This document shows positions 6,824 through 57,838 of a stretch of DNA of 64,000 nucleotides, piece by piece (the stretch's first letter is position 1; each line of letters starts with the position of its first letter). The stretch comes from a virus (lineage: Duplodnaviria; Heunggongvirae; Uroviricota; Caudoviricetes), in the IMG/VR virus record IMGVR_UViG_3300040801_002879, positions 23,418-87,417 of that record; one strand, written 5' to 3'. A model generated the notes under the pieces. The model had not been told where the DNA came from, did not search any database, and saw only the letters and a list, made by a program, of their open reading frames with translations. The position numbers were made by a program, and so were the translations under genes.

Positions 6824-9800
6824 ATGGCTGATAATGGTTCAATAGTTGTTTTACTAGATGAGTTTTCTTTATTAGCACGTGAAACAGCTAGAAATGAAGT
6901 AGATATATTATTAGAAGATGCTTCGGTATCTTCTTCTGTAAACCTGCCAATTTCTGTAGAGACAGATAAAACTTTAGAAGATGTTATTAGTTTGTCTACA
7001 AATTATGCAGAGGTAGAGGCTATTCTGGAAGATGCCGAAGTAGATAATCCTATTATAGGGTCTCTTGAGTTTCTGTTAGAAGATGCTGACTTATCTAGTG
7101 CCTTAGATGTTTCTGGTATTCGCCTTGTAAAAACTTTAAACAATGCTACTCTAAATTCTACTTTAGAAGCTTCTGGCATAACTTTGGTAAAGACCTTAGA
7201 TAAAGCTTCTTTGTTTTCTTCTGTTATTGCAACAGGCGGGTCTCTAAATGTAGTACTTGATTACTTTGATTTAGAAAGTCAAGCTATTAGTGATAATCAG
7301 GTAAACGTAAGTATTTCTTTAGAGGATGTTTCTAAGACTATAGAAGCAGACCTGCTAGTACAATCACAACTAGAAAAAAGCTTAGAAGATGTTTCTGTTT
7401 CATCTTCATACTCTACAAATATAGTTGCAACTCTAGTAAAAGACTTAGAAGAGCTTACTGTAGATAGTGATGTAAAAGGAAATGTCTTTTTTCCTGCTGA
7501 AATTGAGTTTGGTGATGTTGTCTCTTCCGCAGAAGGCTATCTACTTACAGGATTACTAAGTCCATATCAAGATTTTGCTAACTGGACAGGACACCCTGCT
7601 ACAGGACAATCGCTAAAGGTGAGAATAGGAAATCTTAAGGGTGTAACAAACTTAGATGAGTTTGGTTTATTTGCAAGCTCTGGTTGGAATTTAGCTTCTC
7701 AAGGCACTATTGACGAAGAAAATATTCCTGATTCTGTTAGTCACTTGATTGCTAGCAACAAGGGAGTAAGAGCCTATAATATGGATATTACTCTCTTTGA
7801 TAATGGTGCGCCAGTTATAGAATTAAATCATTCCGTACCAAGCTTTGCTCTTGGCTCTACTCTACCATCAGGTTATAACTCTGGTGAAGGTATTTGGATG
7901 GGCAAGGACACAGACGATACTTATAAGTTTAGAGTGGGTGGCACAGGCGACCAAGATAATAGTATTCGATATGATGGGGATGCCTTAGAGATTAGGGGTG
8001 CAGAATTTATACAATATAATCTTTCTACGCCAGTTATTAGTCTAAATCCTGCGGGTCCAAGCCTAGCTATAGGCAACCCTGTTCCTGCTTCTTTTTCTGC
8101 GGGTGTTGGTTTATGGACAGGGTTAGATGGGGGAGAATTTAAATTTAGAATAGGAGACCCTACAGATGCTCGTTTAGAGTGGCTAACGGACACTGGAGAG
8201 TTAAACTTATATGGTACATCTCTGACTTTTGATGGTGAAGAGGGTTTTATAATTCTTACACAGTCATCATTATTTAAGGATATATCAGGTAACTTCACAG
8301 GCTCAGGCGTTTATATTGACAGTCAAGGTATTTCAGGTGTAAATTTAGACCAAGAACAGGTTAGAATTGACTCACAAACAGGTGAGATTATAGCTTCTGG
8401 CGTTCACCTAAATGCCTCTGGTATTTCTATGGTTGGTGGTACGTTTACTGTAGGACAAGCTACATCCTTTAGTTCTGGTATAGGTGTTTTCATTGGAGAA
8501 TTGCCCTCAGATGTACTAGTATCTGAATCACTAGGGGATTATATTTATAGTGAGGGTAGTGAGCTTGGCTATCAAGGAACAGATGAGTTCCGTATCGCTC
8601 TTGGCGGTGGTTGGGCTTTCAGAATTGGAGACCCTGCTGGTGATAGGTTAGAGTGGGATGGTAGTAACCTAAATCTCTATGCTCCTGTTATAAACTTGAT
8701 AGAAGGCATCTCAGACCCAACTCTTTATTTTAAGAGTCTCGCAGGAGACCCTCTGTTTACTGTAACCGCTTATGAAACGACAGTACCTATAGTTGAACTT
8801 AACTCTATAGGCACAAATGCAGAACTACATATTAATGCTGATGTTATAGATTTTTCTAGTGTGCCAACTGTAGATTCAGACCCAACAGAGGCTCTTCAAT
8901 TAGCTACAAAACAATATGTAGATAATAATACTGGCGGTGTTGAGGACCACGGTTTATTAACTGGACTAGGTGATGATGACCATACTCAGTATTTGAATAA
9001 TGCTAGACATGATACAACTACAAGACACACTCTTGGAACAGTTGTTCCCCACGATGACCATGGGCTATTGTCTGGTCTTGGTGATGATGACCATACCCAA
9101 TATTTGAATAATACTCGCCATGACACGACTACGAGGCATACGCTAGGTACGGTTGTACCACGGGATAGTACAAAAGCAGATGACGCTGATGTGGTGCATG
9201 ATACTGGTGATGAAACAGTTGCTGGTGTTAAAACGTTTAGTTCTATTCCCGTTTTACCCGCAAGTGACCCAACTCTTGCTAATCAGGCTGTAAGAAAATC
9301 TTATGTTGATAATGGTTATAGATATTTACAAACAGTAACATTTACTTCTAATGGCACTTTTTCAAAAGCTAATTATTCTGGTATAAGAGCAGTTAGAGTT
9401 CGTCTGGTGGGTGGTGGAGGTGGAGGCGCTGGTGCTCCCGCGACTGCTGCTGGGCAGGTTTCATGTGGTAGCGGTGGAAACGCGGGTGGCTACTCAGAAG
9501 AATTTATTTTGGCAAGTGTGTTAGCTTCAAGCGTGACTGTTACTATCGGTAGTGGCGGTTCTGGGGGGTCTTCGGGTGGGGACGGTGGAGGTGGTGGCAC
9601 AACAAGTTTTGGCTCGTTCTTGTCGGCGACTGGCGGGGGCGGGGGCAATGCTCTTGGCGCTTCGTCCAGTGGTGTTATTCCAGCGATTACAGCCGATGCA
9701 GCAGGTATAGGTTCTGGCGGCGACTTCAATACAAGAGGGGGTACATCTGGAGTAGCCCTCAGAAATGGTGACTCGGAGGTTTCGCTTGGTTCTAGAGGCG

Positions 9801-10166: not shown

Positions 10167-11159
10167 ATGGCAGAAAAAGCATTCAGTAGTTTTGACCCTT
10201 ATTCAGGGACACCCGCAGCAAACGACCTGTTTTTAATGACAGACGTTGACTTTACGGGGACTGAGAAAACGCATAATATTACATACAGTAATCTTATTTC
10301 TGGTTTACAACCAGCGTCTAGTGATTTATCTGGTTTAGCATCAGACTTGCCTTCTATTACAGGACTACTTTATTGGAATGGTGGGACAGAAGATGCCAGC
10401 CAGATTGTTGCTGGTGATGGTATTGTTATTGGAGCATCTGATATTTCAATAAATATAGCTGGTGATAGTGGTATTAGCATTACTGGTACTTCTCTAAAGA
10501 CAATTTCTTTGTCTAAGTTTGGACTTGGAGCGTTAGGAGACCCTACAAGCGAAAGTCTTTTACTAATATCATCTTTAGGTCTTTCTAGTTTTCTTGAAGC
10601 AGGCTCTGGTATTTCATTTTCTGGTGGAAGTATTTCTCTTAGCAAGTTGGGACTAGAAACCCTTTCAGACCCTAATGCTGATAGAATTATGTTTTGGGAT
10701 GATAGTGAGGATTCTTTAAAATGGCTAACGATTGGCGCAGACGCAGGATTAGCCATAAATAGTAGTGGTCAATTAGTTCATGCTCCTGAGCCTGTTGTTG
10801 TTTCTCTTAGAGCAGTTGAAGGAACAACAGACCTAGAAGCTGGTGTAGCAACTTATTGGACAGTGCCAGAAGAATTAAACTTAGCAACTATTTCTAATGT
10901 GGATATTGCTTTTGTTAATCTTAGTGGTAGTGCGACAGTAGCAGTTGATAGAGCACCAAAAGGAACGCCAACCAACTTTGCTAATATACTTACTCAAAAT
11001 CCTATTGTTACTTCTGGTTATAGTACGTTTGAAACAGGACAAACGAGAGGTACGAGTAGTAGTACTTTGGCTACAGGGGATAGACTAAGAATTACACTAT
11101 CAGGATTAAGCACCACAGCACCTCAAGGCTTAGATGTTATTTTTGGATTAGAGGTCTAA
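10167..11159 (+). CDS. Hypothetical tail fibre-associated protein
   Basis: It is 330 aa and Ser/Gly/Thr-rich, with an internal SLSKFGLGALGDPTSESLL / SLSKLGLETLSDPNADRIM repeat. It is followed by an ATGA overlap into the next fibre gene. Confidence 0.55.
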   Translation: MAEKAFSSFDPYSGTPAANDLFLMTDVDFTGTEKTHNITYSNLISGLQPASSDLSGLASDLPSITGLLYWNGGTEDASQIVAGDGIVIGASDISINIAGDSGISITGTSLKTISLSKFGLGALGDPTSESLLLISSLGLSSFLEAGSGISFSGGSISLSKLGLETLSDPNADRIMFWDDSEDSLKWLTIGADAGLAINSSGQLVHAPEPVVVSLRAVEGTTDLEAGVATYWTVPEELNLATISNVDIAFVNLSGSATVAVDRAPKGTPTNFANILTQNPIVTSGYSTFETGQTRGTSSSTLATGDRLRITLSGLSTTAPQGLDVIFGLEV

Positions 11160-12421
11160 TGAGAGTAATATGTGTTAGTGGCTCAAAGCCACCTGTTTCT
11201 CAAATACTTATGCCACAAGACGTAATTGTTCTATGGGCATCGGCTACTATTCCCGATGGGTGGGAAGCATTTTCTAGTGCACAGGGAAAGTTTATAAAAG
11301 GAGCAGGTGCGGGACAGATAGACTTAACAGGTGCTGGTAGTTTGACACATGCTCATACAACAAGCTTAACAAATTCTTCTGGAAGTCATGCTCACTTGCT
11401 AGACCCAAATATGAATAGTGCTTCTGGAAGTACAAATTTTTATACAGGTGGTTCTGGTGACACTGCTGCTGCAGGACATGGACACTCTCCTGGCAACTTT
11501 GATTCTGGAACTGGTGGCTCACATCAACATACGCTTTCTAATACTAATTCTGCTAGTAATTTACCGCCTTATAAAAAACTTTTGTGGATACGTTCTACAC
11601 AAGCTGATGTTGTATTGCCTATAAATGCTTTATTCTTCTATCCCTCAAGCACTGCTCCAACAGGATTTCAAAAATATGGCTCTATAACAGATGGTAGTTT
11701 TATTTATGGTGCTACTACAGGAGATATTGGTGGTACTGGAGGGGCATCTTCCCATACGCATACTAATCCTGATTCTGGTAGTAATGGTGCACATACCCAT
11801 CCTAGTGCTTCTACATCTTCTGGTTGGAATAGTAGTAATGGACCAGACGCAAATACATTTGGAGATGCAACAGTTTCTGCAAGGCACTCTCATAATTTTT
11901 CAGCCGATTTAACCAGTGCAGGAGCACATACACATACAATTGGTGCTACAGGTTCAGGAAGTAATTTACCCTCTTATGTTAACTTAGCATTAGTTGAATA
12001 CTTAAATGGTGAGAGTCTTCCTGCTAATTTAATTGTAGGTTTTTCTGGTAGCTCAGGTTCAATTCCTTCTGGATGGGCTCTTTGTGATGGGAATGGGACC
12101 ACAAATCTTGTTGATAAATATATAAGAGTGGTTACAGGAACGACAGGGGGTATTGGTGGAACAACAACACATAATCATACCATGCCAAATACAAATACAA
12201 CAGGGTCGCATAGTAATCATGGTGTAAATACAAGTGTAAGTAGTGCTGGCGGGGTGTCTGCGGTTGCTGGCAGTGGCTGGAGTGCCGCTTCTCCTTCGCA
12301 TAGTCATGGTTCATCAGCAGCGGTATATTCATCAGGAAGTCACGCCCATTCAAATCCTGATACAGGGTCATCAAACCATGAGCCCCCATATATTAAACTT
12401 TATTTTATTCAAAAGACATAG
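11159..12421 (+). CDS. Tail fibre protein with three His-rich collar-like (MdpB/phage tail collar-like) repeats
   Basis: Three repeats end in NLPPYKKLLWI, NLPSYVNLALVEYL and NHEPPYIKLYFI. They are rich in HxH/HTH motifs and G/S/T, a pattern typical of tail-collar domain fibres. Confidence 0.6.
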   Translation: MRVICVSGSKPPVSQILMPQDVIVLWASATIPDGWEAFSSAQGKFIKGAGAGQIDLTGAGSLTHAHTTSLTNSSGSHAHLLDPNMNSASGSTNFYTGGSGDTAAAGHGHSPGNFDSGTGGSHQHTLSNTNSASNLPPYKKLLWIRSTQADVVLPINALFFYPSSTAPTGFQKYGSITDGSFIYGATTGDIGGTGGASSHTHTNPDSGSNGAHTHPSASTSSGWNSSNGPDANTFGDATVSARHSHNFSADLTSAGAHTHTIGATGSGSNLPSYVNLALVEYLNGESLPANLIVGFSGSSGSIPSGWALCDGNGTTNLVDKYIRVVTGTTGGIGGTTTHNHTMPNTNTTGSHSNHGVNTSVSSAGGVSAVAGSGWSAASPSHSHGSSAAVYSSGSHAHSNPDTGSSNHEPPYIKLYFIQKT

Positions 12422-22851: not shown

Positions 22852-23832
22852 TTAATCTAATTCGGCTCGATTTACAATCGGTAATCTCTTAATCAGGTCT
22901 TGCCTTATTTCTTCTGGCAACCGTGAGGTAATGTCGGGATAGAAGGGGATAGCCAAAACATCTACAATAAACTCTGTACCGTTGTCGTCTAATTCTTTCT
23001 TGACAAGCTCTACGATAAGAGCATCAGCCTCATCATCCCAACGATAGCTAATTTCTGGTTTCTTGAGAATATCGTGTCTAACATAATCAAGTACGTCTTT
23101 TACTCGCTCATGTTCTGCAACTTCTTCTAAGAGAGAAGCAATTGCGCCTTTGATTTGGTCTTCGGTATAATCCTTTCTACCATCAGGTAATAGGGGAACG
23201 TCTTCGATATTTTCGCCATACTTTTCCATAAGCCTGTCTGCAACCTCTGGCTCCATTTCAACTAACTCTGCTCCATTCCATTTGCCGAGAGTACGAAGGG
23301 TTTCGCTGATAGCATAAGGCTTAGCGATAATGGTTTTGAAAGTTTTCTCTAAATCCATGCCTACGTACTGACAGCGTTTGATTGTAGCAAGTCGCTGAAA
23401 TACCAGTGACCGAGAGACGTGACTAGCTTCACAAAAGTAGCCAATAAGGTCTTCCATTCTAGTGAAAGGCTCGCCAGTAAGGGGATTATTCATGCCTACA
23501 TAAATAGGCGTACCGTCTTCTCTAGTCATTTCCGTTAACCGATAGATACGGAATAAACCACGTTCCCGCAAAAGCCTTGATAGGTTTATATCCCTACTCG
23601 CTACCCTCAGTGTGGTTGCTACGTCTCCGTCTACAACTTCTGGCAGTTTTGCGCTGAACAACTCTGCGAATAGCGCAACTAGTCCCAACATCTGTTTCTT
23701 TAGTTTAGGGTCAATACTACCATTACTTTTCAGTGCGTCAAAAGCTTCCTGTAACTGGATGTCATTTACCAGTTGGGCTACTTCCTGCTCCGCACTATCT
23801 GTAAACCCTATATTTACAATTTCATTTGTCAT
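22852..23832 (-). CDS. Hypothetical protein (possible recombination partner)
   Basis: It is 326 aa and shares an operon with the annealing-protein gene. I found no recognisable motif. Confidence 0.55.
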   Translation of the reverse strand: MTNEIVNIGFTDSAEQEVAQLVNDIQLQEAFDALKSNGSIDPKLKKQMLGLVALFAELFSAKLPEVVDGDVATTLRVASRDINLSRLLRERGLFRIYRLTEMTREDGTPIYVGMNNPLTGEPFTRMEDLIGYFCEASHVSRSLVFQRLATIKRCQYVGMDLEKTFKTIIAKPYAISETLRTLGKWNGAELVEMEPEVADRLMEKYGENIEDVPLLPDGRKDYTEDQIKGAIASLLEEVAEHERVKDVLDYVRHDILKKPEISYRWDDEADALIVELVKKELDDNGTEFIVDVLAIPFYPDITSRLPEEIRQDLIKRLPIVNRAELD

Positions 23833-29178: not shown

Positions 29179-29254
29179 GTAGTCGTGGGGGGAGTCGAAC
29201 CCAAACCAACCTGCGCCTTATAAGAGCGATGCTCTAACCATTGAGCTACACGAC
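29179..29254 (-). tRNA. tRNA. The anticodon-loop region is TCTTATAA, so the specificity is uncertain (possibly Ile/UAU-like).
   Basis: A perfect 7-bp acceptor stem (AGTCGTG/CACGACT) with discriminator A is present. The D-arm is GCTC-AATGGTTA-GAGC and the T-loop is GGGTTCGACTCC. The anticodon stem is imperfect when folded by eye. Confidence 0.6.
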
Positions 29255-29281
29255 TAAATATATCTTACCACAAATCTTGGG

Positions 29282-35025: not shown

Positions 35026-36243
35026 TTAAGAGGATTTAAAATTGTAGATAGGTTTGATGATTTTTAATATTCTTACGCTGTCCTGCACATTATCTACAAT
35101 ATCCTCTAAGCTTTTGTAAGCCATGGGTGCTTCATCTAAGGTACTTTGCCCTACCGATGTGGTGTAAATGCCTTCCATGGTGTCTCTAAAGTCCTCTAAG
35201 CTAAGCTCAGACTTTGCTTGCCCTCTGCTCATTAGCCTACCTGCGCCATGGGGAGCAGAGAAATTCCAATCAGGGTTGCCTTTGCCTTCACAAAGTAAGC
35301 TACCGTCTCTCATGTTGATAGGAATTAGTAGTTTCTGACCTTCATATGCTTCTACTGCGCCCTTACGGATAATATTGTCTTTGAAGCTAATAAAGTTATG
35401 AGTTGTGTGAAAAAAGTTAAATTGGTCCAATGCTCCTAAGCCTATATAATTTAGGATAACTCTAGCCATAACCTTACGATTATACTTAGCATATTCCTGA
35501 GCAATTTCCATATCGTGCAAATAATCTTCTCTATGTTGTCCTGTTAGAAAACATAGCTCAGCAGGATATTGAGGATGTTGCTTATCAAACTTAGCTCTAA
35601 GCTTTTTTAGCTCCTTAGAAATTTGTTTTTGCTTGCCTTCCTTCTTTAGGCGTTTAATCAATTCCTCTTGTTCTTTTTGGTAGCTAGCAGTGTTTTTACA
35701 ATCTTCTATTGCCAAATCCTGATAATATTTAGCAACCTGTAAGCCAAGGTTTCTGCTTCCAGAGTGGATAACTAAGTATAGGTTGCCTTCATCATCTTTA
35801 TCAACCTCTACGTAATGATTGCCTGAGCCAAGAGTACCTAACTGTGCTTCGTAATTTTTATCTGGTATGTTTTTTAGGCACTTTAGTTCTTTAATACTAT
35901 CAAATAAGGCTATAGGAGATTTGTGAGAGTTGAAACCAGCAGGTACGTATTCATGGATTACCTTGTCTAACTTTTCTAAATCCATTTCTATTTTACCTAA
36001 TTTGACTGTTAACATCCCACATCCAATATCAACTCCGACTAAATTAGGCACTACTTTATCCCCTAAGTTAGCAGTAAAACCTATAACGCACCCTGCTCCT
36101 GAATGTACATCAGGCATAATACGTACCTTAGCGTCTTTAGCGAAAGGTTGGTTTAGTAGTTGTATAATTTGTCCTTGTGCTGAGCTTTCTACTTTGTCTG
36201 TAAAAATTTTTGCTCTTCCGTATTTACCGTCTACAAAAAACAT
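35026..36243 (-). CDS. rtcB: RtcB-family RNA ligase
   Basis: The motifs MPDVHSGAGCVIG, GSGNHYVEVD and APHGAGRLMSRGQAK match the RtcB metal/GTP-binding and catalytic-His signatures. Confidence 0.85.
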   Translation of the reverse strand: MFFVDGKYGRAKIFTDKVESSAQGQIIQLLNQPFAKDAKVRIMPDVHSGAGCVIGFTANLGDKVVPNLVGVDIGCGMLTVKLGKIEMDLEKLDKVIHEYVPAGFNSHKSPIALFDSIKELKCLKNIPDKNYEAQLGTLGSGNHYVEVDKDDEGNLYLVIHSGSRNLGLQVAKYYQDLAIEDCKNTASYQKEQEELIKRLKKEGKQKQISKELKKLRAKFDKQHPQYPAELCFLTGQHREDYLHDMEIAQEYAKYNRKVMARVILNYIGLGALDQFNFFHTTHNFISFKDNIIRKGAVEAYEGQKLLIPINMRDGSLLCEGKGNPDWNFSAPHGAGRLMSRGQAKSELSLEDFRDTMEGIYTTSVGQSTLDEAPMAYKSLEDIVDNVQDSVRILKIIKPIYNFKSS

Positions 36244-36287
36244 GGTTGTCTCCTTTATATAAAAAATCCCTGCATTTCATTATAAGC

Positions 36288-36342
36288 ATTATACTACATA
36301 CTCTTCTGAAATGCAAGGATAAAATGTTAACAGATTGTTAAG
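36288..36342 (-). promoter_or_regulatory. Promoter cassette upstream of rtcB (CTTAACAATCTGTTAACAT, then TTGCAT-17-TATAAT)
   Basis: The -35 is the reverse complement at 36311-16 and the -10 at 36288-93. The repeat at 36325-42 is identical to the + strand copy at 60050. Confidence 0.7.
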
Positions 36343-36347
36343 AAATC

Positions 36348-37142
36348 TTATTCAGGATTTACCAAGTAATCTGCTATGTCAAACACTGGCTCTGTACCAC
36401 TGATAACCTGCGGTAATTGTCCATTCCAATTTGTCAAGAATAAATATTGGAGATAGCTCTCACTTAGTGCGCCTGTGTTATTCAAAATTTCTTGAGCATC
36501 AGCTTCTGCTTGAGCATTAATCTTAATTGTCTCAGCGTTAATTTCTGCTTGTTCTCTCTCTAATTTAGCAATTTCTACTTTCTGTTCCTGTACCTGTTTT
36601 TGCTCAATAGAGTTATTATATTCGGCTGAGAATTGAATGTCCTCAATATTTAGCGTTTGAATAATAATATAGAAAGGCTCTAATTCACTCTGTAATTGTG
36701 CTTGTGCTACCTGACTTAGCTCTTCTCTTTGAATAATAATCTGTTCTGCTGTATATTGTGCGGTAGCTGATTTGAACGCCTGTTCAATTTGAGGTTTAAT
36801 TATAATATCCTCATATTCCCTGCCAACTTCCTGATAAAGGTCGGCTGCACGCTCCCCAATAATTCTATAGTTGACAGAAACAATAGCTGATACTGCTTGT
36901 AGATTTGAGCTACCTGCTTCTGTTTGTAATTCAAGCTTTTGCGTTTGAGCAGACATTAATTTTCTGCCTTCAACAAGCGGAATTTTCAAACCAACGCCAG
37001 GATTTACTACTCTGTTGATAGCCCCAAAGCGTGTAATAACGCCTACGTGACCTGCTGGTACAGAGTACACTGAAAAAAGTACTACCACTACTAGCAAGAA
37101 CGCTCCTACTAGCCCTGCAATAAACTTACCTTCACTATTCAT
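36348..37142 (-). CDS. SPFH/band-7 (HflC/prohibitin-like) membrane protein
   Basis: An N-terminal TM helix is followed by an SPFH core (HVGVITRFGAINRVVNPGVGLKIPLVE) and a coiled-coil Gln/Glu-rich tail. Confidence 0.8.
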   Translation of the reverse strand: MNSEGKFIAGLVGAFLLVVVVLFSVYSVPAGHVGVITRFGAINRVVNPGVGLKIPLVEGRKLMSAQTQKLELQTEAGSSNLQAVSAIVSVNYRIIGERAADLYQEVGREYEDIIIKPQIEQAFKSATAQYTAEQIIIQREELSQVAQAQLQSELEPFYIIIQTLNIEDIQFSAEYNNSIEQKQVQEQKVEIAKLEREQAEINAETIKINAQAEADAQEILNNTGALSESYLQYLFLTNWNGQLPQVISGTEPVFDIADYLVNPE

Positions 37143-52128: not shown

Positions 52129-52267
52129 AATTTTCCTTTCACTAGTGAATAAGAGCTTGTCTTTGGTTCCGATAAGCGTGGGAGTTCATCACCCGTTGTT
52201 TCAAAGGACTTTCACCTTGCCTACGGTGGGATTTTAACCCTTAGTCCCAAAGTCTCCAAGCTCTCAG

Positions 52268-52340
52268 TACCCCTAGAAGGACTCGAACCCTCATTTCCTG
52301 TTTAGAAGACAGGTGCTCTATTCCATTGAGCTATAGGGGC
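52268..52340 (-). tRNA. tRNA-Arg (anticodon UCU)
   Basis: The acceptor is GCCCCTA/TAGGGGT with discriminator A. The D-arm is GCTC...GAGC. The anticodon stem CCTGT/ACAGG is perfect, with loop CTTCTAA. The T-arm is GAGGGTTCGAGTCCTTC. Confidence 0.75.
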
Positions 52341-55437: not shown

Positions 55438-55659
55438 TTAATCCTCTCCTATAGGATAATAATTGTGTTGTTCAAAATCAAAAATATATGTTACTGGTTT
55501 GTCAACTTCCACGACCCGCCACTCATCTACACCCATCCAACGAGAAAATAAATCTCTCGCATAAGCTTCTGCCTCTTTCTCTGTGGCAAAGACTAAAGCG
55601 TTAGTATAGAATTTTTGTCCACCGATTTCCTTAAATTCTGCTTGAAAAGCCATGTTCAA
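55438..55659 (-). CDS. Hypothetical protein
   Basis: It is 73 aa. Confidence 0.45.
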   Translation of the reverse strand: MNMAFQAEFKEIGGQKFYTNALVFATEKEAEAYARDLFSRWMGVDEWRVVEVDKPVTYIFDFEQHNYYPIGED

Positions 55660-55698
55660 CTCCTTGTTGACTAATGTATAATAATCTTACCATGTCAC

Positions 55699-55884
55699 TT
55701 AGGAATTGTCAAGGGGCAATTTATAATCATCATCATCGGGCATAATTACGTCAACCAATTCCCAATCAGGGAACTTTTGACCCGCGAAATTTTTAAGGTC
55801 ATTTCGTGTAGTATTTTCGGGCACATCTACTGCAATCTCTTTAAATTTAGTCTTAGCTAAAATTACTCTAATTCGTATAGTCAT
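55699..55884 (-). CDS. Hypothetical protein; its start lies inside a duplicated AAGGAGCTCCGATGACTATACGAA module
   Basis: It is 61 aa, beginning MTIRIRV. Confidence 0.45.
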   Translation of the reverse strand: MTIRIRVILAKTKFKEIAVDVPENTTRNDLKNFAGQKFPDWELVDVIMPDDDDYKLPLDNS

Positions 55885-56008
55885 CGGAGCTCCTTTCGTA
55901 TAGTCATAGAGAGCTTGGTCTATGAAGCAAAGTCAGGAATCTCACCTAGTCGTGGACTGTAACCCATTAGCACTAGCGTGCCCGCATACATAGAACCAAG
56001 CCCTCTTA

Positions 56009-56089
56009 GTGGAGCCCGCAGGAGTCGAACCTGCTTCTCACCTAAGTACGTCTACCTAGGGTGCACCCTGCTGATTAAGAGTCGAGCCC
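56009..56089 (-). ncRNA. tRNA-like domain RNA with alanine identity elements and no anticodon arm (resembles a tmRNA tRNA-like domain)
   Basis: The acceptor is GGGGCTC/GGGCTCC with a G3.U70 wobble and discriminator A73. The T-arm GCAGG-TTCGACT-CCTGC is perfect. The 5' part GGGGCTCGACTC...AGCAGGG resembles the tmRNA 5' end. A sigma70 promoter lies about 100 nt upstream at 56197-56225. Confidence 0.45.
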
Positions 56090-56196
56090 CATAAATTATA
56101 TCCAGTGCCCGCCCACCGACACCGATGTTAGCCCGCCCATACACCTATTGGCTAACGCCCTCATCAACACAATCAAGGAGAAACATCACTATAAAG

Positions 56197-56225
56197 ATTA
56201 TAACACATATACTGATGTTTGTCAA
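56197..56225 (-). promoter_or_regulatory. Sigma70 promoter TTGACA-17-TATAAT driving the transcript that ends in the tRNA-like domain RNA
   Basis: The -35 is at 56220-25 and the -10 at 56197-202. No ORF lies downstream. Confidence 0.6.
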
Positions 56226-56232
56226 GTACTAA

Positions 56233-56305
56233 TTCGTGGCTGAGGATTTGAACCTCGTCTGCCTAACAGACCGCCCGCTTTTATTTTTATTCAAGCAACC
56301 ACGAA
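56233..56305 (-). ncRNA. tRNA-like element (non-canonical cloverleaf)
   Basis: A perfect 7-bp acceptor (TTCGTGG/CCACGAA), a T-loop GAGGTTCAAATCCTC and a hairpin GTCTG-TTAGG-CAGAC are present. The D-arm is A-rich and irregular. Confidence 0.35.
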
Positions 56306-56308
56306 ACG

Positions 56309-56366
56309 AGTCGTAGGGGGGATTTGAACCACACCATTCTCTAGTAGTCTTGTCCATTAGACGACT
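56309..56366 (-). ncRNA. Minimal tRNA-like element of 58 nt, related to the tRNA at 29179
   Basis: The acceptor AGTCGTC/TACGACT and T-loop GGTTCAAATCC are present. It shares AGTCGT...CCCCCC(N)ACGACT ends with the tRNA at 29179-29254. Confidence 0.3.
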
Positions 56367-56609
56367 ACAACTCTCAGTTATCTTGCGCTTGATAACTTTT
56401 CGTGGGAGAGCAGGGGTTTTCACCCTGATGCCTGTAGCCATCCCCTCTTACAGGCGTTCTCTCTCGGAGACTTCACTCATCTAACGAGACTTCTCACCCG
56501 AAAAATCATCAAACTAATGTTAAAGTTCTGGTGACTGTCAGTGTAAGCCGATTGCTATAATCTGATTACAAGTTTCCGACCTTTGCCGATTGCTTGCCTG
56601 TCACCTAAC
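56367..56609 (-). ncRNA. Promoter-driven structured non-coding RNA of about 240 nt, upstream of the tRNA-like elements
   Basis: A sigma70 promoter (-35 at 56639-44, -10 at 56617-22) sits upstream. No ORF longer than 35 aa is present. Several perfect hairpins are present (GCCTGTA..TACAGGC, GTTATC..GATAAC, CAGGG..CCCTG), plus a long-range GGTGACAG/CTGTCACC pairing and repeated GCAATCGGC and GAAGTCTC words. Confidence 0.45.
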
Positions 56610-56665
56610 TATTTATATTATACCAGCTTGCCTAGAGAAGTCAAGCACTTTATGTTAACGTTTTG

Positions 56666-56911
56666 TTATTCCTCTACGTAATACTGAGTAGTAATTGTAA
56701 GCGTGCCTTCTTCCTCAATATGCTTTGCGATATGAGCAAGCGCATCTAAAGCAGGATTTTTTGATTTTACCCAAGCCTCATCTTTAACAGATGTTTCTAT
56801 AAAAGCTTCGCTTTCGGGAAATATATTAAGAGTATATTCTTCTCCCTCTTCGCCCAATGGTGCATAATTTTTCTGCGTAATTTTAATAAGACCTAAGTGT
56901 AGTTCTTTCAT
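56666..56911 (-). CDS. Hypothetical protein. Start adjusted to MKELHLG, which has an AAAGGAG RBS.
   Basis: The promoter -10 (56944-49) lies inside the longer ORF version. The internal ATG has a good Shine-Dalgarno. Confidence 0.5.
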   Translation of the reverse strand: MKELHLGLIKITQKNYAPLGEEGEEYTLNIFPESEAFIETSVKDEAWVKSKNPALDALAHIAKHIEEEGTLTITTQYYVEE

Positions 56912-56943
56912 CCGTAACTCCTTTGTTGTGGTTAACTGTAATA

Positions 56944-57005
56944 ATTGTACCACCTATCTATAGTATGTCAAGGGTGTTTTGAAGTTGTTAACAATCCGTT
57001 AACAT
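56944..57005 (-). promoter_or_regulatory. Promoter cassette (ATGTTAACGGATTGTTAACA, then TTGACA-16-TACAAT)
   Basis: The -35 is at 56966-71 and the -10 at 56944-49. Confidence 0.6.
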
Positions 57006-57103: not shown

Positions 57104-57838
57104 TTATTTCATTATCTGCTCCTTTACAAAGTCCATGGTGCGGGTTTCCAATTCCTTTTGTAAAATTCTATCAGGCTCTTGTGCTTTGAAAAAAGCCTCA
57201 ACCTGCTCAAACTTGCGCTTGTGCCAATCATCAATCAAAGATAAGAATACAGCTAATTCTACCTCATTATTCTTAATCTTCATTAACATCCTTCTAAAGC
57301 GTGAGTCACTCTCAAACCAAAACGCCTCATTCATAGGCATACCGCTTGCCACTCGCTCCGCTAATAATAAAACTCTCAAAGCGTGGTGAGCATCCTTAGT
57401 ATCATAACCAAACTCATCAACAATAGGTTGAGTCTTTGCAGTACCTTTGTATAAGGTGCTCATTTTTTCTCGGTGCATCCCCAAGCAAGCAAACCCAAAG
57501 GAGCGCAAATGAATTTTTGAAATTCTATCAGCATTTTCTTTCAACCAAATAGGAAACCCACCAATACCACCATGAAACTTAGTTGAGAATAAAACCTCAA
57601 CAAAATTTGGATTAGCTTTCCATAACAAGTGAGATAATTGTCGGATGTCATGTACCGTATAATCAAACTCATCGGACTGCTTGCCATTAGAGAACATCCT
57701 ACCCTTGTATAAGTCCTCAAACGTGGGAGCAACAAAGAACTTCCAGTCCTCATCACTCGCAGGCGTGTTTAGATTATAGTTATGCGACCCTGTTAATGCT
57801 TGAATTATAACTCGTCTACCACCAAATCGTTCTGTCAT
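57104..57838 (-). CDS. Pol-beta-superfamily nucleotidyltransferase (RlaP/DUF-type, about 245 aa)
   Basis: The N-terminal motif ALTGSHNYNLNTPASDEDW fits hG[GS]x9-13Dx[DE] of minimal nucleotidyltransferases. The size fits stand-alone nucleotidyltransferases. Confidence 0.6.
   Translation of the reverse strand: MTERFGGRRVIIQALTGSHNYNLNTPASDEDWKFFVAPTFEDLYKGRMFSNGKQSDEFDYTVHDIRQLSHLLWKANPNFVEVLFSTKFHGGIGGFPIWLKENADRISKIHLRSFGFACLGMHREKMSTLYKGTAKTQPIVDEFGYDTKDAHHALRVLLLAERVASGMPMNEAFWFESDSRFRRMLMKIKNNEVELAVFLSLIDDWHKRKFEQVEAFFKAQEPDRILQKELETRTMDFVKEQIMK

Follow-up and report, generated by a model that had tools for sequence, protein, structure and literature searches.

An anticodon-less RNA with alanine identity nucleotides in a Caudoviricetes phage: a candidate relative of minimal tmRNAs and tRNA-Ala

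The closest described counterparts of the RNA considered here are transfer-messenger RNAs (tmRNAs) reduced to their transfer RNA (tRNA)-like domain (TLD). A TLD-only tmRNA is known in mycobacteriophage DS6A (PMC4131195, PMC11915505), and tmRNA forms without a coding sequence (CDS) occur in jakobid mitochondria and in two plastids (Mallomonadaceae) (PMC11915505). An engineered TLD inhibits tmRNA, possibly through titration of SmpB, and a like role has been proposed for the DS6A RNA (PMC4131195, PMC11915505). Here we analyze a 64,000-nucleotide stretch of Caudoviricetes DNA (hereafter the window; positions 23,418 to 87,417 of the IMG/VR record IMGVR_UViG_3300040801_002879) and a tRNA-like element of 81 nucleotides (nt) on its minus strand, at positions 56090..56010. 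An earlier note on this DNA had likened the element to the TLD of tmRNA, and the phage precedent for such mimicry is a real one, namely the DS6A RNA. The reading that we favor, though tentatively and at somewhat less than an even chance, is that the element is a processed, alanine-chargeable but non-decoding mimic of the TLD or of tRNA-Ala. It is best seen as a divergent, poorly conserved, minimal relative of TLD-only tmRNAs and tRNA-Ala.

The minus-strand sequence of the element, GGGGCUCGACUCUUAAUCAGCAGGGUGCACCCUAGGUAGACGUACUUAGGUGAGAAGCAGGUUCGACUCCUGCGGGCUCCA (followed by CUAAG), extends from G1 at 56090 to the discriminator A73 at 56010. The minimum free energy (MFE) and centroid folds concur in a cloverleaf of -32.7 kcal/mol (z=-2.5), and equal stability was reached in 2 of 200 shuffles. 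The acceptor 5' strand GGGGCUC (56084..56090), which carries G3, pairs at seven of seven positions with the 3' strand GGGCUCC (56017..56011); the latter, together with A73 (56010..56017), runs into CUAAG without an encoded CCA. This 7-bp stem includes both G3.U70 and U6.G67, and a canonical T arm, GCAGG-UUCGACU-CCUGC (56018..56034), evident in sequence and fold, stacks directly on it. The acceptor stem with its third G.U pair, the discriminator A, the resulting identity set for alanyl-tRNA synthetase (AlaRS; G3.U70 and A73) and the presence of both acceptor halves, all proposed in the earlier note, are thus borne out. The probability that chance would place a fully complementary 5' strand at an appropriate distance is ~2.4%.

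Only 47 nt separate the acceptor 5' strand from the T arm. As had been claimed, no 7-nt anticodon loop can be drawn in this interior, but it is not structureless: it contains a D-like hairpin (56065..56082; a 5-bp stem ACUCU/AGGGU with the 8-nt loop UAAUCAGC, present in the MFE and centroid folds) and, at the site of the anticodon arm, a closed hairpin (56039..56063; 10 bp with one bulged C and a GACG tetraloop). The palindrome GGGUGCACCC that had been picked out there forms no hairpin in the MFE fold. The D-like loop is without the GG that marks D loops and the D-loop analogue of tmRNA, residue 8 is G rather than U, and four unpaired nucleotides lie between the long hairpin and the T arm. As the element has no anticodon and no usable reading frame, it is predicted neither to decode nor to tag.

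Standard tools pass over this RNA, in line with what had been anticipated. ARAGORN calls neither a tRNA nor a tmRNA at the element and finds no tag peptide, and Rfam at gathering thresholds reports nothing there; neither reveals a canonical anticodon arm. In the whole window ARAGORN calls only tRNA-Ile(TAT) at 29179-29255 and tRNA-Arg(TCT) at 52267-52340, and Rfam at gathering thresholds gives the same two. An ordinary tRNA was rejected on these negatives, together with the lack of a drawable 7-nt loop, of U8 and of a D loop with GG. In a permissive Rfam search of 55500-57000, however, the top match is tmRNA (RF00023; 20 bits, E=1.1e-5 for the 1.5-kb region), which outscores the other tRNA-clan families at the element. 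The alignment joins the 5' GGGGC..UCGA of the element to its 3' GA-T arm-acceptor-AC.A, with the 324-nt body of the model deleted.

For calibration we used a viral family that was recovered from IMG/VR with the relaxed pattern GGGG-N3-GA...GGTTCRANTCC-N6-CTCCA. Most matches of this pattern form a coherent TLD-only family of ~77-81 nt with at least 38 unique core members (loci L011-L130), whose layout is GGGGCUG-GAUGGUUUCGAC-P2 helix-mini hairpin-GGAC-T arm-CAGCUCCA. In this family 94.5% of cells pair (slid controls, about 50%), all six pairs of the P2 helix covary, and G3.U70 and A73 are invariant. The members lie above the gathering score of the Rfam tmRNA model (48-77 bits), and score 55-85 bits on R1, a covariance model built here from the family; ARAGORN calls none of the 38 listed. 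Among the matches listed, four of the 38 are near tRNA genes and six encode CCA. Canonical TLD-only genes are widespread in viral contigs; in the literature found they are recorded from one phage only, DS6A. The element itself scores 26.3 bits on R1 (E about 2e-4), the best match in the whole window, although the R1 seed came from a pattern inspired by the element, so that this score is not fully independent. R1 aligns only the acceptor, the T arm and two GA dinucleotides of the element.

The exact 3' 25-mer of the element has a single match among 185,579 species genomes, in a metagenome-assembled genome of Candidatus Saccharibacteria (contig L255; CAZUKH010000001.1). By BLAST a block of 29 nt is identical (29/29; window 56009..56037, minus strand, and L255 2249..2277), covering the T arm, the 3' acceptor strand, A73 and C74, and it is the only significant BLAST similarity between the window and L255. 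The block belongs to a 67-nt CDS-less ssrA-like gene (L255 2313..2247, minus strand) of the sequence GGGGCCUUGGUCUCAGUAUAGGUGAGACUUUCUUCGGAAGCAGGUUCGACUCCUGCGGGCUCCACCA. ARAGORN makes no call on this gene, whose score is 28.3 bits on R1 and 30.3 bits on the Rfam tmRNA model, in the alignment of which UGGU.UC and CGGAAG fall on the tmRNA motifs; it folds into an acceptor, a 7-bp hairpin, a small hairpin and a T arm. It stands in an ordinary chromosomal setting, flanked by a hypothetical gene on one side and a ribonucleotide-reductase-like reading frame (judged by eye only) on the other, with no integrase among the open reading frames (ORFs) scanned on that other side. The 5' acceptor strands of the two RNAs differ (GGGGCCU in L255, GGGGCUC in the phage), yet each pairs fully with GGGCUCC. 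That the sole genome match is a minimal anticodon-less RNA of the alanine type, rather than one of the commoner tRNA-Ala or standard tmRNA genes, argues for real kinship. Judging from this gene, some bacteria of the candidate phyla radiation may use a TLD-only rescue RNA.

The same 29-bp block raises the alternative that it is a phage attachment site (attP), i.e. an integration core for a host ssrA-like gene, with the remainder of the element incidental. An exact block of ~30 bp from the 3' half of a bacterial gene is what the element shares with attP cores at tRNA and tmRNA genes, for which cores of 30-45 bp over the 3' half are typical (PMC10865867); here the identity with the chromosomal ssrA-like gene reaches from the T arm to the first C of CCA, and the window leaves out ~23 kb of the phage. 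An exact match to a host gene together with an integrase had been named as the mark of an attP relic, and of these an exact match, to a bacterial gene, was found. No integrase domain was detected in ORFs of at least 150 amino acids (aa) across the 64-kb window, in agreement with the earlier statement that none is nearby; none lies within 6 kb, whereas integrases normally adjoin attP. The phage moreover has a lytic look, with its own DNA polymerase, primase, helicase, Rad52-type recombinase, tRNAs and RNA-repair genes. Unlike an attP core, the element comes with a 5' acceptor strand of its own and with the flanks of a tRNA gene, neither of which integration needs, and the identity stops inside CCA (ACUA versus ACCA). 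Relatives lack the block at this position, and the phage proteins point to Clostridia rather than to Saccharibacteria. Taken together, we consider an attP core quite improbable.

The flanks deserve closer attention. The two real tRNA genes of the phage (Arg, Ile) are preceded by TATTT and end in an A that is followed by CTGAG and CTAAT. The element, preceded by ATTTAT, runs from GGGG to CTCCA and continues with CTAAG, thereby resembling both tRNA genes in its 5' and 3' flanks (the latter A followed by CTNA), and none of the three encodes CCA. CCA-less tRNA precursors are cut by RNase P at the 5' end and by an RNase Z-type activity at the 3' end, after which CCA is added. From its sequence the phage copy looks adapted to the phage's own tRNA-processing context, and such flanks without CCA speak against its being no more than an attP core or a relic of random origin.

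A relic could nevertheless take a less random form, as a captured copy of a tRNA-Ala or ssrA-like gene that has lost its core and decays passively in a variable 5' untranslated or non-coding RNA (ncRNA) region. Its closest relatives are without the element, the pattern searches yielded no diverged homologues among the matches listed, the D-like loop has no GG and hence no canonical elbow contact, a neighboring tRNA-like element (Element A, see below) has a poor T stem and looks degenerate, and uncalled tRNA-like fragments are common in phage contigs. Decay does not readily account for the intact state of the seven acceptor pairs, the five T-stem pairs, the T-loop consensus, G3.U70 and A73, for an interior of two clean hairpins in place of random sequence, or for flanks that are those of functional tRNA genes. 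The 5' strand differs from that of the Saccharibacteria gene with pairing still full, and several contigs that were assembled independently carry the element unchanged (all of the same phage population). We therefore regard a decaying relic as unlikely, while giving it some weight.

Relatives of the phage were found through homologues of the RlaP-family nucleotidyltransferase that is encoded ~1 kb upstream of the element (57104-57838, minus strand), and were graded by RlaP identity; contig L008 was left out of the comparison, as it ends short of the region. Contigs L002-L006, which have identical flanking proteins, belong to the same phage, show a single substitution in the leader and carry an identical element, and as such offer no covariation. 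The element had been credited with its own promoter and hence its own transcript. A perfect promoter, P2 (56225..56197, minus strand; TTGACA-17-TGnTATAAT, 12/12, with an extended -10), does lie about 100 nt upstream, but the claim of an own transcript is weak because P2 is also kept in relatives that do without the element, and its product there is a conserved leader RNA. This structured leader RNA (56100..56190, minus strand) reads UUCUCCUU..GAGGG-stem-GUAUGGG-stem, followed by a hairpin with the loop GGUGGGCGG; UUCUCCUU is anti-Shine-Dalgarno-like, and the leader has no Rfam match. This final hairpin, together with the U-rich tail after it (56125..56092), has the look of a terminator.

Contig L007 (RlaP 81% identical) conserves P2, a further promoter P1 (56644..56617 in the window, minus strand, within a non-coding island), the AGUUAUC..GAUAACU hairpin and the RNA from P2 to the position of the element. 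The stems of its leader (about 1840-1935) are altered on both sides, GUUAGCC/GGCUAAC having become GUUACG/CGUAAC, and the stem under GGUGGGYGG also differs. The more distant contigs L131-L133 (RlaP 55-57%) keep the leader motif (about 3480-3590 in L131, in which P2 is also recognizable); they have RlaP, and no T-loop-bearing elements were found in the region. Across the relatives the loop GGUGGGYGG is invariant, while the stems around GUAUGGG and under the loop covary, as read by eye, RNAalifold on three leader sequences having given a poorly registered alignment. Given that the leader is conserved and the element absent, it is the leader RNA that forms the conserved P2-driven unit, with the tRNA-like pieces as a variable cargo; the element is dispensable for this phage lineage. 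The leader could be a small RNA or could act in cis to regulate the small ORFs downstream. A TATAAT hexamer (56095..56100, minus strand) 4 nt upstream of G1, without a -35 or TG, is a possible -10-only start, and is probably not essential since it is polymorphic within the same phage population (CATAAT in L002). From the sequence, expression of the element is plausible, but is not implied by the strength of P2.

Directly 3' of the element is a long-stem RNA (56008..55900, minus strand; a 17-bp interrupted stem with a branched interior, -42.3 kcal/mol, z=-4.0), which precedes the Shine-Dalgarno site of a 61-aa ORF (55884..55699). L007 has a different long hairpin at this site, ahead of the conserved UGACUAUACGAAA. 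As the element is placed precisely where the conserved leader RNA gives way to the hairpin and Shine-Dalgarno site of the next ORF, its fold might serve only as punctuation, i.e. an RNase P/RNase Z signal that separates the leader RNA from the mRNA of the 61-aa ORF. The flanks, which are like those of the phage tRNA genes, and the similar placement of other tRNA-like elements on the P1 transcript would suit this explanation. However, relatives do without the element at the same position, and a processing signal needs neither an intact alanine identity set nor a 3' half that matches a bacterial ssrA-like gene exactly. Punctuation alone thus appears improbable.

To return to the processed, alanine-chargeable mimic, a number of observations weigh against it. 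The element scores 20 bits on the Rfam tmRNA model, against a gathering score of 47 and 48-77 bits for viral TLD-only genes. On R1 it reaches 26.3 bits, against 55-85 for the members, and is equaled by ordinary tRNA-Ala-type genes (27.2, 29.4 and 26.9 bits; those that match the relaxed pattern). Both the D-loop-analogue motif GG..UUCGAC and the GGAC motif are missing: the element has GACUCUUAAUCAGC, which is predicted to be paired, and GAGAA in their places, and both models leave these positions unaligned or mismatched, while the motifs are near-invariant in the viral TLD-only family. In tmRNA structures these two motifs are the docking places of SmpB and of the T loop, and their loss makes SmpB binding doubtful. 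The strong promoter P2 belongs with the conserved leader RNA, and a terminator-like hairpin (56125..56102) with a U-rich tail (to 56092) stands between that leader and the element. The closest relatives, L007 and L131-L133, lack the element altogether. The exact and relaxed pattern searches of IMG/VR returned no sequence-varied homologue among the matches listed, so that the two inner hairpins have no support from covariation. Finally, the signals of the host disagree, the RNA match pointing to Saccharibacteria and RtcB and RlaP to Clostridia.

A canonical TLD-only tmRNA was accordingly rejected on scores and motifs calibrated on real members, and the element is not assignable to the tmRNA family; at most it could be TLD-like in its working. 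The resemblance to a tmRNA TLD that had been noticed at first holds for the acceptor stem and T arm, which are however common to tRNA-Ala, and fails for the tmRNA-specific motifs and the score. There is also no mRNA-like domain: the triplets GCA CCC UAG (nt 27-35) are buried in the closed 10-bp hairpin. GCA is the commonest type of tmRNA resume codon, and the in-frame UAG follows after two codons, which invites the thought of an ultra-minimal tmRNA on which the ribosome resumes at GCA and adds Ala-Pro. Tags of two codons do occur in some full-length tmRNAs (PMC11915505). In the element, though, a stable 10-bp hairpin encloses the frame at a distance of only ~20 nt from the acceptor stem, the helix 2 or pseudoknot scaffold that would reach the decoding center is missing, and so are the tmRNA-specific motifs, so that tagging of this kind is extremely improbable.

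The pattern scan of metagenomes returned, among the matches listed, unrelated 3' parts of full tmRNAs, tRNA-Ala genes and canonical TLD-only genes; the source contigs themselves were not among them, so that the scan has no bearing on relatives. The same T-arm 20-mer recurs in a variety of tRNA-like genes from other phages, most of them not called, and the T arm alone was for this reason rejected as a marker of kinship. A further uncalled tRNA-like type came to light around the GAAGCAGGTTCGACTCCTGC match in IMG/VR, a bare acceptor/T-arm minihelix of ~45 nt, ACGAACGG-UGUGGUUGAA-GCAGGUUCGACUCCUGC-CCGUUCGU, in three viral contigs (L257, L260 and L263).

If the element is indeed a processed mimic, it would be transcribed within a longer precursor, either from P2, with transcription continuing through the leader hairpin, or from the weak -10-only site. 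Its ends would then be released by RNase P at G1 and by an RNase Z-type activity behind A73, in the same way as those of the two CCA-less phage tRNAs, and the CCA-adding enzyme of the host would finish the 3' end. AlaRS needs no anticodon, the acceptor stem being sufficient, and the host enzyme might thus charge the element via G3.U70 and A73, whereupon EF-Tu could bind its acceptor/T-arm helix. The charged RNA might rival or replace the ribosome-rescue RNA of the host for AlaRS, EF-Tu and possibly SmpB, in keeping with the engineered TLD and with the proposal for DS6A. As both inner loops are closed hairpins, the RNA would offer no target to nucleases that attack anticodon loops or mRNA-like regions, and this putatively nuclease-proof shape fits a phage with the repair enzymes RtcB and RlaP.

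The element is not alone in its surroundings. The motif GGTTCRANTCC occurs in six copies in the window (0.14 expected): two are in the real tRNAs, and three, at 56021, 56244 and 56320, fall within 330 nt on the minus strand. The sixth, GGTTCAATTCC at 12056-12066 (plus strand), is within a 420-aa ORF (11159-12421) and is probably a coincidence. The three clustered copies are in a non-coding island of 780 nt (56665..55885) without credible ORFs, which holds the element and three further tRNA-like elements that lack an anticodon. Element B (56304..56233, minus strand) is a 72-nt cloverleaf (z=-3.7) closed by UCGUGGU..GCCACGA+A, with the T arm GAGG-UUCAAAU-CCUC, an AU-rich D-like loop of 14 nt, and an "anticodon arm" that is a 6-bp stem with a triloop; its 3' end is 8 nt before the -35 of P2. 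Element A (about 56373..56307, minus strand) has a 9-bp terminal stem, a D-arm-like hairpin GUCU/AGAC with the loop AAUGGACA, and a weak T stem; an anticodon arm is lacking. In Element D (56465..56403, minus strand) the stem GAGAGAG/CUCUCCC+A is stacked on the 5-bp hairpin CAGGG-UGAAAAC-CCCUG, and there is an inner hairpin in addition. Elements A and D are on the P1 transcript, and none of A, B and D is called as a tRNA by ARAGORN or Rfam. A 70-aa ATG ORF (56229-56441, minus strand), which overlaps with Elements A and B, matches no family and is probably spurious; counterpart "genes" annotated in related contigs may likewise be ncRNA.

These neighbors are also replaced among relatives. At the site of Element B, L007 has a longer and different tRNA-like RNA, UCCGUG..GUGGGUUCGAGCCCCAC..CACGGAA, and its positional analogue of Element D is built on another pairing stem, GGGGGUG/CACUCCC+A. 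In L009 (RlaP 51%) different acceptor/T-arm RNAs with large bodies are found beside RlaP, and L010 (RlaP 47%) has real tRNAs and uncalled T-arm fragments. The L009 region (9200-9730) consists of a promoter followed by three RNAs that start with GGYGGCGGCGUG..CACGC and have bodies of more than 100 nt; two of the three end in a canonical T arm and an acceptor-like 3' strand (..UCAGGUUCAAAUCCUGACCACCCA, ..GCAGGUUCGAAUCCUGUCCGCCA), and neither ARAGORN nor the TLD-only model calls them.

The island adjoins a gene for RNA repair. The RlaP gene stands beside it, and RtcB (35026-36243, minus strand), adjoining a Band-7/SPFH protein (the pair spanning 35026-37142), is encoded 20 kb away from RlaP; the two make up the RNA-repair kit of the phage. 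RlaP extends damaged RNA 3' ends by one or two nucleotides and contributes to the restoration of heavily damaged tRNAs (PMC12776372), and it accompanies RNA ligases in phages (PMC7824862). According to a statement cited in PMC11090510, tmRNA is the most frequent RtcB substrate reported in bacteria. The closest named homologues of the phage RtcB are from Clostridium, Desulfosporosinus and Caloramator (57-61% identity) and those of RlaP from Clostridium and Peribacillus, and the promoters and Shine-Dalgarno sites of the phage look Firmicute-like. At the DNA level neither megablast nor blastn found a relative among deposited phages, and the phage DNA polymerase is ~32% identical to known ones. 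In the window the tail genes are on the plus strand and the replication and accessory genes on the minus strand; a Rad52-type recombinase, a primase, a helicase and an ArdC-like protein are encoded.

Such a setting suggests another role for the element and its neighbors, namely an array of headless tRNAs that act as decoys, which would sidetrack anticodon nucleases or other tRNA-targeting defenses, or would serve RtcB/RlaP as partners or sensors, in place of ribosome rescue. The clustering of three of the six T-loop motifs within 330 nt, the Element B cloverleaf with its triloop-capped arm, the acceptor-like terminal stems of Elements A and D, the proximity of RlaP and the presence of RtcB all accord with this, as do the other uncalled acceptor/T-arm RNAs beside RlaP in L007 and L009. 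A fast turnover of elements among relatives would fit an arms race, and bacterial RNA-repair platforms use a tRNA-like partner RNA (PMC7824862, PMC4201824). The association with RlaP is however not obligatory, since L131-L133 have RlaP without the elements, and the decoy idea leaves the intact alanine identity set unexplained. Most anticodon nucleases recognize the anticodon loop, and we know of none that has been shown to be titrated by RNAs lacking that loop. A decoy array is thus an unlikely explanation, if one worth keeping in view.

A broader proposal would unite these observations with the chargeable mimic: the element and its three neighbors may exemplify an undescribed class of phage "headless tRNAs", in which anticodon loops are replaced by closed hairpins. 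Such RNAs would be substrates for RNase P, CCA addition, aminoacyl-tRNA synthetases and EF-Tu and would be immune to anticodon nucleases and unable to decode. The alanine member would be a nuclease-proof stand-in for or competitor of a CDS-less rescue RNA such as that of the 67-nt Saccharibacteria gene, and the set would be allied with RtcB/RlaP in a contest over the cleavage of host tRNAs. We put this forward as a speculation that is more likely wrong than right by a wide measure.

TLD-only tmRNAs have so far been curiosities, recorded from one phage (DS6A), some mitochondria and two plastids. The common TLD-only tmRNA genes in viral contigs suggest that phages widely interfere with, or supplement, trans-translation. 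If the element is processed and charged, phages would also deploy alanine-accepting, non-decoding mimics that fall outside the tmRNA models and are invisible to ARAGORN and Rfam; these mimics could adjoin tRNA-repair genes, and may have counterparts in reduced bacteria such as Saccharibacteria. An aminoacylated anticodon-less RNA might act in infection by titrating SmpB, AlaRS or EF-Tu, by rescuing ribosomes without a tag, or as a decoy.

Among known systems, one parallel is with the Y RNAs (YrlA, of Rsr/RtcB operons), which like the element are tRNA-mimicking ncRNAs in genomes with RtcB-type repair (PMC4201824, PMC7824862). They end in a Ro-binding stem and have a closed acceptor-like arm, whereas the ends of the element form a free, normal acceptor stem; with this topology, no Ro/TROVE domain in the window ORFs scanned and no Rfam Y RNA match at E<=10, a Y RNA was rejected. 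With tRNA-Ala and the minihelix substrates of AlaRS the element shares G1-C72, G2-C71, G3.U70, G4-C69, A73 and the T arm, while differing from tRNA-Ala in the residue at position 8, the D loop and the anticodon loop. The Saccharibacteria gene differs in being chromosomal, in encoding CCA (ACCA), in keeping UGGU.UC and CGGAAG, in being 14 nt shorter and in its other inner hairpins; the two RNAs are alike in the alanine identity, in UAGGUGAGA, in having no decoding arm called and in their sub-threshold tmRNA scores. Canonical TLD-only tmRNAs are marked by the D-loop analogue GAnGGnUUCGAC, by a P2 helix that covaries and by a GGAC ahead of the T arm; the element instead shows a D-like hairpin that is paired and has no GG, a long hairpin with a tetraloop, and GAGAA. 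Yet both are phage-encoded RNAs of 65-85 nt, often without an encoded CCA, that dispense with an anticodon loop and a tag frame and combine G3.U70 and A73 with a canonical T arm.

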